Translations under genes and position numbers: made by a program
In this document: positions 52,039-62,427 of the stretch, one piece after another
Layout: every line of letters starts with the position of its first letter
Numbering within the stretch: position 1 is the stretch's first letter
NCBI GenBank assembly: GCA_040752195.1
Contig: JBFMFC010000003.1
Span: 40,110-104,109, forward strand
Length of the DNA stretch: 64,000 nucleotides
Source: Pseudomonadota bacterium
GTDB taxonomy: Bacteria > Pseudomonadota > Gammaproteobacteria > Burkholderiales > Burkholderiaceae_F
Reading direction: 5' to 3'
Notes under the pieces: model-generated
The model's database searches: none
The model's input: the letters and a program-made list of their open reading frames with translations, nothing else
What the model was told of the DNA's origin: nothing

Positions 52039-54666
52039 ATGCAAGAGAAATACAATCCGCAGCAGGTCGAAGCCGACGCGCAGGCCCACTGGCGCTTGAT
52101 CGACGCCTATCGCGCGCGCGAGAACGATCCGCGCTTTCCCAAAGGCAAGTTCTACGTGTGCTCGATGCTGCCGTACCCGAGCGGCAAGCTGCACATGGGG
52201 CACGTGCGCAACTACACGCTGAACGACGTGATGTACCGCTACATGCGGTCGAGCGGCTACAACGTGATGACGCCGATGGGCTGGGACGCGTTCGGCCTGC
52301 CGGCGGAGAACGCGGCGATCGAGAAGGGCATCGCGCCGGCGCAGTGGACCCGCGCCAACATCGCCGACATGAAGGCGCAGATGCAGCCGCTGGGACTGGC
52401 GTTCGACTGGAGCCGCGAGATCGCGACCTGCGATCCCGGTTACTACAAGTGGAACCAGTGGCTGTTCCTGAAGATGCTGGAACGCGGCATCGCCTACCGC
52501 AAGACGCAGATCGTCAACTGGGACCCGGTAGACAACACGGTGCTCGCCAACGAGCAGGTGATCGACGGCCGCGGCTGGCGCTCGGGCGCGCTCGTGGAAA
52601 AGCGCGAGATCCCCGGCTACTACCTGGCGATCACGAAGTACGCGGAGGAACTGCTCGCCGATCTGGCCAGGCTCGACGGCTGGCCGGAGAAAGTGCGCGT
52701 GATGCAGGAGAACTGGATCGGCAAGAGCGTCGGCGTCAATTTCGGCTTTCCGTACGAAATCGACGGCGAAAGCAAGCTGCTGCGGGTGTTCACCACGCGC
52801 GCCGACACGATCATGGGCGTGACCTTCGTCGCGATCGCCGCCGAGCATCCGCTGGCCGCGCGTCTGGCCCGAGACGACCCGAAGGTCGCCGCCTTCGTCG
52901 AGGAGTGCAAGCGCGGCACCGTGATGGAAGCCGATCTCGCGACGATGGAGAAGAAGGGGGTGCCGACCGGCTTTTTCGTCACGCACCCGCTCACGGGCGA
53001 GAAGATCGAGGTCTGGGTCGGCAACTACGTGCTGATGGGCTACGGCGAAGGCGCCGTGATGGGTGTGCCCGGCCATGACGAGCGCGACTTCGCGTTCGCG
53101 AAGAAGTACGGGCTTCCGATCAGGCAGGTGATCGCGCCGGCCGCCGGCCGCGACGCGCCGCCGTTCACCGCCGAGCGCTGGCAAGACTGGTACGCCGACA
53201 AGGACGGCGTCTGCGTCAACTCCGGCAGGTACGACGGCCTGTCGTACGAGGCCGCGGTCGACGCGATCGCCGCCGATCTCAGGGCGAAGGGGCTCGGCGA
53301 CAAGCAGGTGCAGTGGCGGCTGCGCGACTGGGGCATCTCGCGCCAGCGCTACTGGGGCACGCCGATCCCGATCATCCATTGCGCGGACTGCGGCCCGGTG
53401 CCGGTGCCCGAGAAGGACCTGCCGGTCGTGCTGCCCGAGGATCTGGTGCCCGACGGCAGCGGCAATCCGCTCGCGAAGGACGAGCGCTTCCTCGCCTGCA
53501 CGTGTCCGCAGTGCGGCAAGCCGGCGCGGCGCGAAACCGACACGATGGACACCTTCGTCGACAGCGCCTGGTACTACATGCGCTACTGCTCGCCCGATGC
53601 GCCGACGATGGTCGACGAGCGCGTCGACTACTGGATGCCGATGGACCAGTACATCGGCGGCATCGAGCACGCGGTGCTGCACCTGCTGTACGCGCGCTTC
53701 TGGACCAAGGTCATGCGCGACCTGGGGCTGGTGAAGTTCGACGAGCCGTTCACGCGTTTGTTCACGCAGGGCATGCTGCTCGCGGAGTGCTGGTACCGCG
53801 AGGACGAAAGCGGTCGCAAGCGCTGGTTCTACCCGAGCGAAGTGGACGTGCAGTTCGACGAGCGCGGGCGCCCCATCGGCGCCACCGCCAAGGCCGACGG
53901 CAAGCCGGTGCTGTACGGCGGCATCGAAAAGATGTCCAAGAGCAAGAACAACGTCGTCGAGCCGAAGGACGTGATCGCGCGCTTCGGGGCGGATACCGCG
54001 CGCGCGTTCGTGATGTTCGCCGGCCCTCCGGATCAGAGCGCCGCCTGGTCGGATTCGGGTGCCGAAGGCGTCTACCGCTTCCTGCGCCGGTTGTGGAACT
54101 TCTGCTATGCGCGGCGCGCGTCGATCGCGGCGGCCGGCGCGATCGACGCGCTGCCGCTCGATGGCCGCGCCCGCGCGCTACGGCGCGAAGTCCATCTGAA
54201 TCTGAAGCAGGCGGACTTCGACTACCAGCGCATGCAGTACAACACGGTCGTGTCGGCGGCGATGAAGATGCTGAACGCGATCGAGGACGCCGCGCTCGAC
54301 GATTCGCCGGCGTCGGCCGCGGTGCTGCGCGAAAGCCTCTCGATCCTGCTGCGCACGCTGTATCCGATCGCGCCGCACATCGCGCATGTGCTGTGGGTCG
54401 ATCTCGGTTACGCCAGGGCGGCCGGCGACCTGTTGGATGCGCCGTGGCCCAAGCCGGCGGCCGACGCGCTCGCGCAGGACGAGGTCGAACTGGTCGTGCA
54501 GGTCAACGGCAAGCTGCGCGGCACGGTGCGCGTGCCCGCGCGGGCCGACAAGGGCGCGATCGAAGCGGCGGCGCTGGCCGACGCCAACGTGCGCAAGTTC
54601 GTCGGTGCCAACCCCGTCAAGCGCGTCGTCGTCGTGCCCGGCAAGCTGGTCAACGTGGTCGTCTAG
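52039..54666 (+). CDS. leuS: leucyl-tRNA synthetase
   Basis: [49 protein letters not shown]. Confidence 0.98.
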
Positions 54667-58580: not shown

Positions 58581-59774
58581 GTGACCACGATCGATTCGTT
58601 CTTCGCCATCTGCCCGCGCGGGCTCGAAGCCGTGCTCGCCGGTGAGCTCGCCACGGTCGGCGCGACCGGCATCCGCGCCGAGTCCGGCGGCGTGGCCTTC
58701 GCCGGCGCGCTGCGCACGGCGTACGCGGCGAACCTGCACGCGCGCATCGCCAGCCGCGTGCTGTGGCAGATCGCGCAGGGGTCCTATCGCGACGAGAGGA
58801 GCCTGTACGCGCTCGCCGCCGACGTGCCGTGGGAGCGCCACTTCTCGCCGCGGCAGACGCTGCGCGTCGACCTGAACGCGTCTCGCTCGCCGCTGGCGAG
58901 CCTCGAATTCGCCACGCTCACGGTCAAGGACGCGATCGTCGACCGGATGCGCGCACGGACCGGCGCGCGCCCTTCGATCGACCGCGCCCGCCCCGACGTG
59001 CGCGTGTTCGTCTACCTCGACGAGTCGACGGCGACGCTGTATCTCGACCTGTCCGGAGAGCCGCTGTTCAAGCGCGGCTGGCGCGAGGACAAGGGCGAGG
59101 CACCGCTGAAGGAAAACCTCGCCGCCGGGCTGCTCGCGCTGGCGGGCTGGACACCCGAGGTGGCGTTGCTCGATCCGTTCTGCGGCAGCGGGACCCTCGT
59201 CATCGAAGCGGCCTCGATCGCGGCGCGGCGCGCGCCGGGACTGCAGCGCCGCTTCGCGTTCGAGAAGCTGCAGGGCTTCGACGCCGCGGCCTGGCGCACG
59301 CTGCGCGAGCAGGCGCACGCGGCGATCGACGATCACGCCCCCGCGCTGATCGCGGGTTCGGACATCTCGACGCGCGTGATCGAGACCGCCCGCCGCAACG
59401 CCCGCCTCGCCGGGCTCGACGCGTGGCTCGCCGACGGACGCCTGCGCCTGACGGCCGCCGACGCGCGCAAGATCGAGCCGCCCGCGCCGGCCGGCATGAT
59501 CGTCACGAACCCGCCCTACGGCGAGCAGAGCCATCCGAAGTCCGCGCCGGTGCCGAAGATGATGGGCGAAGTCGCCGACCGGCTGAAGCAGTCGTTCGCG
59601 GGCTGGACCGCGTGGATCCTGAGCGCGGACCGCGCGCTGCCGCGCCAGATGCGGCTGCAGGAAACGCGCCGGACCGTGCTCTTCAATGGCCCGCTGGAGT
59701 GCCGGTTCTTCCGTTTCGAGATCGTCGCCGGCGCGTACCGGCCGCGCAGCGACGCCTCGGCAGCGACGCGTTAG
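58581..59774 (+). CDS. rlmL: THUMP-domain SAM-dependent rRNA methyltransferase (stand-alone RlmL-like)
   Basis: GLEAVLAGEL, THUMP region, APLKENLAAG, DPFCGSGT, TNPPYG. Confidence 0.8.
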   Translation: MTTIDSFFAICPRGLEAVLAGELATVGATGIRAESGGVAFAGALRTAYAANLHARIASRVLWQIAQGSYRDERSLYALAADVPWERHFSPRQTLRVDLNASRSPLASLEFATLTVKDAIVDRMRARTGARPSIDRARPDVRVFVYLDESTATLYLDLSGEPLFKRGWREDKGEAPLKENLAAGLLALAGWTPEVALLDPFCGSGTLVIEAASIAARRAPGLQRRFAFEKLQGFDAAAWRTLREQAHAAIDDHAPALIAGSDISTRVIETARRNARLAGLDAWLADGRLRLTAADARKIEPPAPAGMIVTNPPYGEQSHPKSAPVPKMMGEVADRLKQSFAGWTAWILSADRALPRQMRLQETRRTVLFNGPLECRFFRFEIVAGAYRPRSDASAATR

Positions 59775-59955: not shown

Positions 59956-60879
59956 ATGCTGTTCCGCGTTTGCGTCGCGTGCGACCACACGAACCCGCCG
60001 GACTCGCGGTTCTGCGGCAAGTGCGGTGCGCCGCTGCAAGTCAGGTTCTGCCGGTCGTGCCGGTCTCCCAACGACGCCGTGTCGCGCCACTGCCAGTCGT
60101 GCGGCACCGAGCTGCCCGAGCTGGCTGAGCCCGAGGCGGCGCTGCCGTCGAACGGGTCCAGGTCGGCAACGATCCCGCCGCTCGTGATCGCCACGCCCGG
60201 GCGCCCGGTGGGCGATACGGCACCGGCACCGTTCGCTGCGCCGACGACGACGACCGCCGCGGCGTTGCCCGGCGGCGAAGTACCTGCGAACGCAGCGGGC
60301 GCGCCTGCGCTCGACGAGACCCGCGCACTGCCGGCCGGCGCCACCGGCGATCAACCCGCGATCGACGCGCTGCCGCAGCGTCCTGCCGGATCGGCGTCGA
60401 TCCTGGTCGACAGCGCGGTCGCGAACGCGAACCTGACCGAACCGGCCAACGGCGCTCGGCAGTCGGCCCGCGCGCGACGCGGGCCATGGGCTGCGCTCGC
60501 GCTCGCCGTCGCCGTGCTCGGCGTCGCATTCGGCGCGTTCGCGTACAAAGCCTGGCGCAACGGTGCCGCCACCGGACCTACGGAGCGCGCGGTCGCCCCG
60601 CCCCCCACGGCGCCCGCGCCACCGCCGCGCGCACAACCCGACGCACCGAGCCCAACCCCGTCACCCGCGCCAGCCGCCGAGTCTGCCGCGCCGCCCGCCG
60701 CGGGCGCGAGCAAGGCGGCACCGCGCGAACGACGCGAAGCGGCGCCGCGCGTTGTCGAGCGCGCCCCGGCGGGCTCGAGCGCGCCCGCCGCCCCCGCCAT
60801 GCCGGCCCTGCGCGAGTGCACCCCACCCGTCGCGGCGCTGGGCCTGTGTACGCCAGAACCCAAACCGGAAGGAAACTGA
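59956..60879 (+). CDS. double-zinc-ribbon, single-pass membrane protein of unknown function
   Basis: CVAC..N...RFCGKCG and CRSC..N....HCQSCG, Pro/Ala-rich linker, one TM helix (WAALALAVAVLGVAFGAFAY), Pro-rich tail ending CTPPVAALGLC. Confidence 0.85.
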   Translation: MLFRVCVACDHTNPPDSRFCGKCGAPLQVRFCRSCRSPNDAVSRHCQSCGTELPELAEPEAALPSNGSRSATIPPLVIATPGRPVGDTAPAPFAAPTTTTAAALPGGEVPANAAGAPALDETRALPAGATGDQPAIDALPQRPAGSASILVDSAVANANLTEPANGARQSARARRGPWAALALAVAVLGVAFGAFAYKAWRNGAATGPTERAVAPPPTAPAPPPRAQPDAPSPTPSPAPAAESAAPPAAGASKAAPRERREAAPRVVERAPAGSSAPAAPAMPALRECTPPVAALGLCTPEPKPEGN

Positions 60880-60884
60880 AGCCC

Positions 60885-61931
60885 ATGCACCGCTTACTGC
60901 GCAACGCCGCCTTTTTCGCCTGCACCTGCGCGCTGGTCCCCGGCGCCGCACTCGCGGGCACGCCGTACAAGATCGTCACCGCCTCCGAGCGCGGGACCTA
61001 CATCCAGATCGGGCGCGATCTCGCGAAGTACGTCGCGCCCGCGGCCGACATCGATCTGGAGGTGCTGCCGTCGGCGGGCTCTTCGGAGAACGTGCAGCGG
61101 CTGCGCTACGAGCCGGGGGTGAAGTTCGCGCTGGTGCAGTCCGACGTCTATCAGGCCTACATCAACCAGGGCGCGAGCGGCCACGCGGAAGCGGCGCGCA
61201 TCATCCGCCCGCTGCGCGTGATCCTGCCGCTGTACAACGAAGAGATCTACTTCATCGCGCGCGCCGACGCGCCGTACACGTTCGTCCACGAGATCCGCGA
61301 CGCGAAGATCAACGTCGGCCTGCTGCGCAGCGGCACCGCGATGTCGGCCACGACGCTGTACCGGCTGATGTTCGACCGCCCGCTGCCCGACGCCAACATC
61401 TCGTTCCTGTCGAACGAGGAGGCGCTCGCCCGGCTCGTCACGGACAAATCGGTCGACGTGGTCGTGGTCGTCGCGGGGCAACCCGCGAAGCTGCTGACCG
61501 ACATGAAGCCCGAGGCGCGCGCGCTGATCAAGCTGCTGAAGCTCGACCCGAAGCACCCCGCGAGCCAGGCCGCGCTGAAGACCTACTTTCCGACGAGCGT
61601 GCGCGCTTCGCTGCATCCGAATCTGCTGACCGAAGACGTGCCCGGGCTTGCGGTGAAAGCCTACCTCGTCACCTACGACTACAACCAGTCGGCCACGCAG
61701 GCGCGGCTGGCGCGCTTCGCGCGTTCGCTGTGCGAGAACTTCGGCACGCTGCAGGCCGAGGGGCACCCCAAGTGGAAGGAAGTCGAGCTGGCGATGCCCG
61801 AACTCGGCCGCGGCTGGGCGTACTTTCCGCCGATCGCGCGCGAGTTCGAGCGCTGCGTCGCCGCCCGCGCCCAGCCCGCCAAGGCGAAGTCATGCACGAC
61901 CGAGCAGAAGATCCTGGGGCTGTGCGAGTAG
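60885..61931 (+). CDS. TAXI family TRAP solute-binding protein (orphan)
   Basis: Signal peptide, TAS.RGTY.QIG.DL, SAGSSENV, ALVQSD, LYNEEIYFIAR, INVG...SGT; start ATG 60885, 5 nt after the previous stop. Confidence 0.85.
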   Translation: MHRLLRNAAFFACTCALVPGAALAGTPYKIVTASERGTYIQIGRDLAKYVAPAADIDLEVLPSAGSSENVQRLRYEPGVKFALVQSDVYQAYINQGASGHAEAARIIRPLRVILPLYNEEIYFIARADAPYTFVHEIRDAKINVGLLRSGTAMSATTLYRLMFDRPLPDANISFLSNEEALARLVTDKSVDVVVVVAGQPAKLLTDMKPEARALIKLLKLDPKHPASQAALKTYFPTSVRASLHPNLLTEDVPGLAVKAYLVTYDYNQSATQARLARFARSLCENFGTLQAEGHPKWKEVELAMPELGRGWAYFPPIAREFERCVAARAQPAKAKSCTTEQKILGLCE

Positions 61932-61944
61932 CGGCGCGCGCCGC

Positions 61945-62427
61945 TCAGCCGAGCGCCTTTTCGATGTCGGCAGCGATGTCTTCGGGCTTGGTCGTCGGCG
62001 CGTAGCGCGCGATGACCTTTCCATCCCTGCCGATCAGGAACTTGGTGAAGTTCCACTTGATCGCTTCCGAACCGAGCAGCCCGGGTTTGGCCGACGTCAG
62101 GTACTTGAACAGCGGATGCGCGTTCTCGCCGTTGACGTCGACCTTGGCGAACAGCGGGAACGTGACGCCGTAGTTCGTCTCGCAGAACTCGGCGATCTCC
62201 GACTCGGAGCCCGGCTCCTGCGCGCCGAACTGGTTGCACGGGAAGCCCAGCACGACAAAGCCGCGCTTGGCGAACCGCCGGTACAGCGCCTCGAGCCCCT
62301 TGTACTGCGGTGTAAAGCCGCACCGGCTCGCGGTGTTGACGATCAGCAGAACCTTGCCCTTGAAGTCGGCGAGCTTTTTCGGCTTGCCGTCGAGGGTCTT
62401 GGCCGAGAAGTCATAGACGGTCGGCAT
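61945..62427 (-). CDS. glutathione peroxidase family protein
   Basis: VNTASRCGFTPQY, GFPCNQFGAQEP, WNFTKFL; Cys rather than Sec; start ATG 62427. Confidence 0.95.
   Translation of the reverse strand: MPTVYDFSAKTLDGKPKKLADFKGKVLLIVNTASRCGFTPQYKGLEALYRRFAKRGFVVLGFPCNQFGAQEPGSESEIAEFCETNYGVTFPLFAKVDVNGENAHPLFKYLTSAKPGLLGSEAIKWNFTKFLIGRDGKVIARYAPTTKPEDIAADIEKALG

Follow-up and report, generated by a model that had tools for sequence, protein, structure and literature searches.

A TAXI-fold binding protein paired with a bitopic zinc-ribbon protein as a candidate split periplasmic receptor

The gene pair and its products

The stretch of DNA analysed here (the window) is 64,000 nucleotides (nt) of contig JBFMFC010000003.1 (positions 40,110 to 104,109) from GenBank assembly GCA_040752195.1, a Burkholderiales genome. 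Its subject is a pair of adjacent genes on the forward strand: one (59956..60879) encoding a 307-amino acid (aa) membrane protein, called the partner below, and one (60885..61931) encoding a 348-aa periplasmic binding protein of the TAXI fold. A sequence-only reading had described the partner as a double zinc ribbon followed by a linker, a single transmembrane helix and a Pro-rich tail, with the TAXI gene 5 nt downstream of it and no DctQM permease alongside, and had proposed that the binding protein senses a ligand and signals or localises through the membrane partner rather than serving transport. The partner's architecture was borne out by the open reading frame (ORF), its translation and Pfam matches, and the spacing by the coordinates. 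The region is about 70% G+C and for this reason contains many spurious ORFs, so the real genes were picked out by homology.

The partner consists of a zinc-ribbon head, a linker, a transmembrane helix, a Pro-rich stalk and a Cys-loop tail. The double zinc ribbon, with four CxxC pairs, occupies residues 6–50 (59971..60105, + strand) and is predicted to be cytoplasmic; it belongs to the DZR family (PF12773, 39.8 bits against a cut-off of 27.3, E 5.2e-10) and also matches PF13240 (6e-9). Some 125 low-complexity residues separate it from the transmembrane helix, placed by inspection at W178–Y197 (60487..60546, +) directly after the sequence RARRG; most homologous partners have a single hydrophobic segment in the equivalent position. 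The stalk that follows, read from the translation (60547..60816, +), is a Pro/Ala-rich, low-complexity and presumptively periplasmic region of about 90 aa, ranging in the homologues from 89 to 308 aa with 10–28% Pro. The Pro-rich C-terminal part contains only two cysteines, both in the tail, a C-x9-C loop (CTPPVAALGLC, 60817..60849, +). The C-terminus as a whole is ECTPPVAALGLCTPEPKPEGN.

The TAXI-like gene starts 5 nt past the TGA of the partner gene, in a different frame. A Shine-Dalgarno-like sequence, GGAAGGAAA, with a GGAAGGA run, lies within the end of the first gene (60867..60875, +), 9 nt ahead of the ATG of the second, a position consistent with co-transcription and coupled translation of the pair. 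By inspection the product begins with a Sec-type signal peptide (60885..60962, +), with predicted cleavage after Ala26, between GAALA and GT, and no lipobox. It matches PF16868 (NMT1_3) with 82.7 bits against a cut-off of 27, and TIGR02122 (TRAP_TAXI) with 80.7 bits, just below the cut-off of 84.35; the genome's canonical TAXI paralogues reach 301–326 bits. Judged by sequence, then, it is a deep, separate branch relative to canonical TAXI proteins. An AlphaFold2 (AF2) model built on 79 clade sequences has a mean confidence (predicted local distance difference test, pLDDT) of 91.8, and its best Foldseek matches are all TAXI proteins: VcGluP (9IBO/8S4J), TtGluBP (8U79/1US4), the Ehrlichia protein 4DDD and VCA0144, with template modelling scores of 0.66–0.74, E-values of 1e-16 to 1e-19 and 21–22% identity. 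The ligand contacts of VcGluP are Y45, S75, Q93 and E125 (PMC11574862); in a profile alignment at low identity, anchored on motifs common to both proteins, these correspond to Y13, S40, Q59 and E93 of the mature TAXI-like protein, all four invariant in the 79 clade sequences. Given the structural matches and the invariant contact residues, both the TAXI fold and a TAXI-like cleft are retained.

The protein ends in KSCTTEQKILGLCE, in which a C-x9-C loop (CTTEQKILGLC, 61893..61925, +) is carried on a flexible linker. In the AF2 model this tail is a short helix past a low-confidence linker, beyond the last helix of the fold. Every member of the clade is annotated as a transporter subunit.

Conserved pairing, matched tails and exchangeable heads

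For comparison, 80 related loci were collected from many genera of Burkholderiales and Rhodocyclales, with 61–96% identity. Four lie too near a contig start for the adjacent gene to be assessed. Of the other 76, 69 have, immediately ahead of the TAXI-like gene and in the same orientation, a bitopic ORF ending in C-x9-C. The intergenic gap is between −24 and +47 nt in 66 of these 69; the remaining three gaps are 113 nt (L035), 163 nt (L025) and 1552 nt (L032). On these sequence comparisons the pairing is far beyond chance. All-against-all clustering of the flanking ORFs turned up no third gene in more than about 10 of the 80 loci, and around the Burkholderiales loci neither a kinase nor a regulator gene is conserved. 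One identical TAXI protein and its DZR partner occur in three different contexts rich in insertion sequences (IS), where independent gene calls also give DZR and NMT1_3. The pair is patchily distributed (14 of 401 genomes in the order, two of 400 in the class), and the TAXI part is 60–77% identical across genera. More widely there are over 3,000 close homologues, and a profile search gives 352 clusters (50% identity) at E < 1e-30.

No transporter accompanies the pair. The missing DctQM permease of the sequence-only reading is indeed missing: no fused permease lies near the pair in the window, where the sole DctM-like match is some 52 kb away and below cut-off. Elsewhere in the source genome (3.96 Mb, 97% complete) there are two true TAXI fused permeases, a point on which that reading had wanted a check; both are on other contigs and each adjoins its own canonical TAXI protein. 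None of the 80 loci has a fused TAXI permease within 6 kb of the TAXI-like gene, and a search of these loci by tblastn with both source-genome permeases gave one weak DctM-like match only, on which grounds a permease in cis was rejected for all 80. The gene neighbourhoods thus ran opposite to a TAXI clade with a usual adjacent permease and an unconserved pairing. Nor did the flanking-ORF clustering show a recurrent transporter, whatever its kind. Of 10 carrier genomes tested, five (G614, G622, G672, G775 and G489; 97–100% complete) have no TIGR02123 permease over cut-off; among them G614 and G672 encode the pair complete with its tails, and in G622 and G775 the zinc-ribbon partner lacks the terminal Cys loop. 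The source genome also encodes a third kind of TAXI-like protein outside the window (L012:1354-2709, on G000 contig C6). This protein, of 451 aa, has an NMT1_3 match of 55 bits, an N-terminal transmembrane helix, and a C-terminal transmembrane segment followed by a coiled coil; from its sequence it seems to be a further TAXI relative that is anchored in the membrane and has no permease.

The two proteins of the pair end alike. The consensus C[ST]xxx[RK][IV]LGLC closes all 80 TAXI-like proteins, and C[TP]xxVxALGLC closes the partner at the 69 loci. In the partner alignment C288 and C298 are invariant and L-G-L is at least 90% conserved; in the alignment of 79 TAXI-like sequences C311, L318, G319 and C321 are invariant. 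When the source genome was scanned in six frames, no real ORFs other than the window pair ended in the motif. A role as a general sorting tag was rejected, since only these two real ORFs carry the tail in the whole genome, and a recent DNA duplication of the tail was rejected by eye, the two tail-coding stretches agreeing at conserved residues only.

A phylum-level search extended the comparison to a family of uncultivated Alphaproteobacteria, represented by metagenome-assembled genomes (MAGs) of about 2 Mb labelled Rickettsiales or Alphaproteobacteria, in which all 44 genomes have a TAXI-like gene. Here the TAXI-like protein has no Cys loop and its tail is of an "ELLxILxK" type, ending ..(D/E)L(L/M)xI(L/V/I)(D/E)K.. 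in most of 30 loci. At all 29 loci where it could be assessed, the protein encoded upstream (58–188 aa) ends ..(D/E)LLSI(V/I/L)xK(Y/H), and in 26 of the 29 it has one predicted transmembrane helix. Comparison of Cys-loop and ELLxILxK loci thus indicates that the tail sequence differs between the two lineages and is common to both partners in each. An OmpR-type winged-helix regulator is encoded about 0.9 kb downstream of the alphaproteobacterial pair on the same strand (L147:7542-8144(+), with equivalents in L112-L115). Its receiver looks degenerate, with no acidic pocket, and a ribA-like gene on the other strand lies between; the regulator may be an output linked to the pair, or its position may reflect no more than conserved synteny. 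A gammaproteobacterial relative (46% identity) has a third variant, in which the partner has a TolA-like helical stalk rich in Ala, Glu and Arg and a C-x12-C end, and the TAXI protein ends in CSSDRRLLGLC. Ahead of this pair is a gene for a 1005-aa protein (L098:255-3272) that starts with a tubulin/FtsZ-like GGTGG glycine loop.

The heads vary. Among 65 partner homologues, 44 have DZR, three an AAA_22 P-loop ATPase and two a J domain (DnaJ); single zinc ribbons also occur. What the partners have in common is only the plan (head, one transmembrane helix, stalk, tail), and the tail cysteines are the sole invariant columns of their alignment. As far as domain assignments show, therefore, the cytoplasmic head is interchangeable. 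A kinship between the AAA_22 head and the nSTAND1 head of the fused forms described below was considered and rejected; BLASTP similarity is limited to the P-loop, and the two are accordingly taken as different head families. In genome G803, a second TAXI-like copy with a J-domain partner (L108:132-1469(-)) reads in two frames, which points to a frameshift in the assembly or to a paralogue in decay.

Single-chain relatives were sought by a profile search over 1.8 billion representatives, among the best 150 of the 352 clusters. In 25–27 of these 150 the TAXI-like domain is at the C-terminus of a longer chain, and its profile matches (195–312 bits, E 1e-52 to 1e-88) establish homology. Domain scans of 27 fused representatives gave an nSTAND1 head in 17, TIR in two, PP2C in one and a trypsin-like peptidase in one; another, P0170, has a zinc-ribbon motif recognised by pattern and was given little weight, because the ligand motifs are gone from its TAXI part. 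Most have a predicted transmembrane helix between head and TAXI-like domain, and P0152, P0182, P0193 and P0227 are among the chains with this head, helix and TAXI order, where the window has two genes instead. Fused forms recur in independent assemblies, including an Ideonella MAG. By its domain order the single-chain layout is that of a transmembrane receptor, and these relatives fix the topology of the partner, with head inside and TAXI protein outside; they show that evolution has repeatedly placed the TAXI-like domain on the outer side of membrane-spanning proteins whose inner part is of a signalling type. Of 52 standalone representatives 34 have the tail, as do only two of 25 fused ones (Fisher p = 1.5e-6, inflated by shared ancestry). 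In the tree the nSTAND1 fusions form one clade, nested among standalone tail-bearing forms. The Ideonella nSTAND1 fusion gene is followed by a small gene of the OmpA family (peptidoglycan-binding; L105:9129-9575), and the fused gene of L107 is beside phage-type integrase genes. Two representatives have several TAXI-like domains in tandem in one chain, four in P0154 (1137 aa) and three in P0200 (2478 aa).

A candidate split receptor and its alternatives

The interpretation preferred here, with modest confidence, is that the pair is a split, membrane-tethered periplasmic receptor and not a transporter subunit. It builds directly on the conserved pairing, the permease-free neighbourhoods, the TAXI fold and cleft residues, the exchange of heads, the single-chain relatives and the matched tails. 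The sequence-only proposal of sensing or localising through the membrane partner gains support from the same pairing and neighbourhoods, from the carrier genomes with no TAXI permease and from the receptor-like single chains. The exported TAXI-fold protein would bind a small ligand, probably an amino-acid-like carboxylate, in its conserved TAXI-type cleft, and instead of passing it to a TRAP permease would be coupled to the bitopic partner. The transmembrane helix and long Pro-rich stalk of the partner would hold its Cys-loop "knob" in the periplasm, with the zinc-ribbon head in the cytoplasm. Coupling would be through the matching knob on the C-terminal leash of the TAXI protein, either knob to knob or with both knobs on one site, and ligand occupancy would then alter the clustering of the cytoplasmic head or its recruitment of partners. 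Tail-to-tail contact, the ligand and the cytoplasmic output are what we infer from the comparisons, and with them ligand sensing, a role for the zinc-ribbon head and signalling as opposed to mere localising. If the pair is a receptor, a physical link through the tails is conceivable, and falls a little short of an even call.

Several observations weigh against this interpretation. In an AF2 model of a natural read-through fusion of the partner tail and TAXI protein (from L014), which gave no contact output and points neither way, the partner loop has only an intermediate pLDDT of 62–75 and the TAXI tail shows no gain. Seven of the 76 assessable loci lack an adjacent partner and still have the TAXI tail, and in four of five partner-less genomes checked the partner-type tail pattern was not found anywhere in the genome; since these loci keep it, the TAXI tail cannot serve solely to bind a partner tail. 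In one Burkholderiales family (L095:4283-5788(-) and L097:5267-6640(-)) the zinc-ribbon and transmembrane partner has no terminal Cys loop; the periplasmic side consists of 300 aa that include an internal C-x7-C, and the corresponding TAXI tails are without Gly (VLMLC and LLLLC). Two fused forms, P0258 and the TIR-headed P0227, keep the tail, and the association of tail loss with fusion is only suggestive, because there are few independent events and the nSTAND1 fusions are one clade. Conformational signalling seems unlikely in view of the low-complexity linkers flanking the transmembrane helix on both sides. A zinc ribbon is not among the known output domains, and Pfam and NCBIfam give only zinc-ribbon models for the window partner, with no kinase, methyl-accepting chemotaxis protein, GGDEF or anti-sigma domain. 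Finally, transporters of other families may act in trans.

In one alternative the TAXI protein is an ordinary high-affinity binding protein, tethered near the inner membrane by the partner much as by a lipid anchor and delivering its ligand to a transporter encoded elsewhere, whether one of the two TAXI permeases of the source genome or a non-TRAP carrier as in TAXI-GltS of Bordetella. The conserved cleft residues, the two TAXI fused permeases of the source genome, the existence of "orphan" TRAP binding proteins, and that of TAXI proteins with non-TRAP carriers and membrane anchoring (PMC12344293) would all fit. It is nevertheless unlikely: each of the two permeases has an adjacent canonical TAXI protein scoring above 300 bits, half of the 10 carrier genomes have no TIGR02123 permease over cut-off, no transporter recurs near the pair, and fusions to STAND, TIR and PP2C heads would make no sense for a transport accessory. 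The pair might also be an envelope tether or scaffold, its short tails, amphipathic or closed by a disulfide, binding the membrane surface, peptidoglycan or a common third protein and its stalk spanning the periplasm as in TonB/TolA, so that it positions something, even at a pole as ZitP does, with no ligand to report. The length of the stalk suffices to span the periplasm, a TolA-like helix takes its place in one distant relative, the TAXI tail persists in partner-less loci, the alphaproteobacterial tails are short amphipathic helices, and the pair is core in that family (44/44). Strict conservation of the TAXI ligand contacts argues instead for ligand binding, and a scaffold fits poorly with a tail that in the source genome is limited to the two partners and changes in both together between lineages, or with the failure of the comparison to find a conserved third gene; this alternative is given quite a low probability.

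A conflict or immunity system, in which the TAXI-like domain would detect a periplasmic danger signal and the head trigger a defensive or suicidal response, is suggested by the nSTAND1, TIR and trypsin-like heads of the single-chain relatives, which are tied to conflict systems (PMC8195603; bioRxiv 10.1101/2023.09.22.558884), and by the patchy distribution and the IS- and integrase-rich contexts. It is improbable for the window pair, whose head is a zinc ribbon rather than an effector and whose setting is one of housekeeping genes; the TAXI part, 60–77% identical across genera, is unlike diversifying immune sensors, and the gene is core in one whole family. A known defence system was rejected, PADLOC giving only noise (E ~1e-3) and no significant match. 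That the two ORFs are unrelated chance neighbours or mis-annotated is refuted by the comparative data (pairing at 69 of 76 loci and at 29 of 29 in a second lineage, tight spacing, matched tails, fusions), and the probability left to it is negligible.

The split-receptor interpretation can be taken further, to a widespread and so far unrecognised class of two-piece transmembrane receptors. In these, matched tails would join a TAXI sensor, non-covalently or by disulfide exchange, to a single-pass adaptor with an exchangeable head (short peptide, zinc ribbon, J domain or P-loop ATPase), and in the fused forms the sensor would drive STAND NTPase or TIR heads. STAND/TIR-type signalling would then have an input from the periplasm, and tail matching would be a new way for two gene products to assemble into a receptor. 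This extension is tentative and more readily doubted than the receptor itself.

Among known systems, the TAXI-type substrate-binding proteins of TRAP transporters (TIGR02122; VcGluP, TtGluBP, Ehrlichia 4DDD) have the same two-lobe fold, secretion and conserved Y/S/Q/E contacts. The window clade differs in being only 21–22% identical to them and below the TIGR02122 cut-off, in having no adjoining DctQM permease, and in its C-terminal Cys-loop leash and its pairing with, or fusion to, a bitopic protein. In LuxP-LuxQ, TorT-TorS, ChvE-VirA, BctC-BctE and the Venus-flytrap sensor BvgS, a periplasmic binding fold senses a ligand for transmembrane signalling, in both separate and fused versions. The partners there are histidine kinases with known outputs, whereas the heads here are zinc ribbon, J domain, P-loop NTPase, STAND and TIR, and coupling seems to be through matched C-terminal tails. 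A cytoplasmic zinc-finger or ATPase head, one transmembrane helix, an extended Pro-rich or helical periplasmic stalk and a small terminal binding module are also the plan of ZitP of Caulobacter, TonB/TolA and ExeA/GspA. No sequence relationship of the partner to any of these was found, and no ExbBD-type or secretin partners are nearby; the likeness to TonB/TolA does not go beyond the Pro-rich stalk, since the cytoplasmic head of 175 aa and the tail of 11 residues are different, and no motor genes are conserved nearby. In the TAXI-GltS system of Bordetella pertussis, the TAXI protein BP0403 is lipid-anchored and dimeric and its partner is the carrier GltS (PMC12344293). That system resembles the window pair as a membrane-tethered TAXI protein without a TRAP membrane component, and differs in that the window partner is single-pass with no transport domain. 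The single-chain TAXI relatives bear nSTAND1 and TIR heads like STAND/TIR conflict receptors (PMC8195603); the window pair has neither, and the sensors of known STAND proteins are mostly cytoplasmic repeat domains rather than periplasmic binding proteins.

Sensing through binding proteins is thus already known, as are tethered binding proteins and TAXI proteins whose partners are not of the TRAP type (PMC12344293). The use of a TAXI fold as a receptor appears to be new, as do the exchangeable heads, STAND and TIR among them, and the design with matched tails; full-text literature searches found no description of this gene pair. If the pair is a receptor module, the more than 3,000 close homologues and about 350 clusters (50% identity) are mis-annotated as transporter subunits, and a binding-protein fold would join the STAND/TIR sensor repertoire, extending its reach to the periplasm. 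The matching of tails is a principle conserved while the sequence varies by lineage, and as a coupling device would be a simple rule by which separately exported and inserted proteins find each other. Being small, found in culturable strains (candidates are Azohydromonas australica DSM 1124, Aromatoleum buckelii U120, Thauera phenolivorans ZV1C and isolates of Polaromonas or Rhodoferax) and provided with mutational handles in the four tail cysteines, the pair is directly testable.

Neighbouring genes and other observations

The window pair is set among housekeeping genes. On the upstream side these comprise leuS (52039-54666), a proA-like aldehyde dehydrogenase gene and an RlmL-like THUMP methyltransferase gene (58581-59774); downstream, gpx (glutathione peroxidase), ending at 61945, is convergent to the TAXI-like gene. 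Inspection showed a perfect 16-nt GC palindrome, AGCGGCGCGCGCCGCT, between the two convergent stop codons (61930..61945), overlapped by a terminator-like site at 61942-61955. The palindrome is probably the end of the two-gene transcript, as a terminator stem shared with gpx.

At two of the partner-less loci, from one subclade (L038:4132-5730 and L074:3584-5569), the TAXI-like gene is preceded by one for a secreted Gly/Ser/Ala-rich protein of 530–660 aa. Its core, which contains Cys, is conserved (..NYNGSYK(I/V)KNTPDV..GPCNGFS..), and its long C-terminal part is rich in Ala, Pro and Gln. The L038 protein has no Pfam match. These secreted proteins may be an alternative partner.

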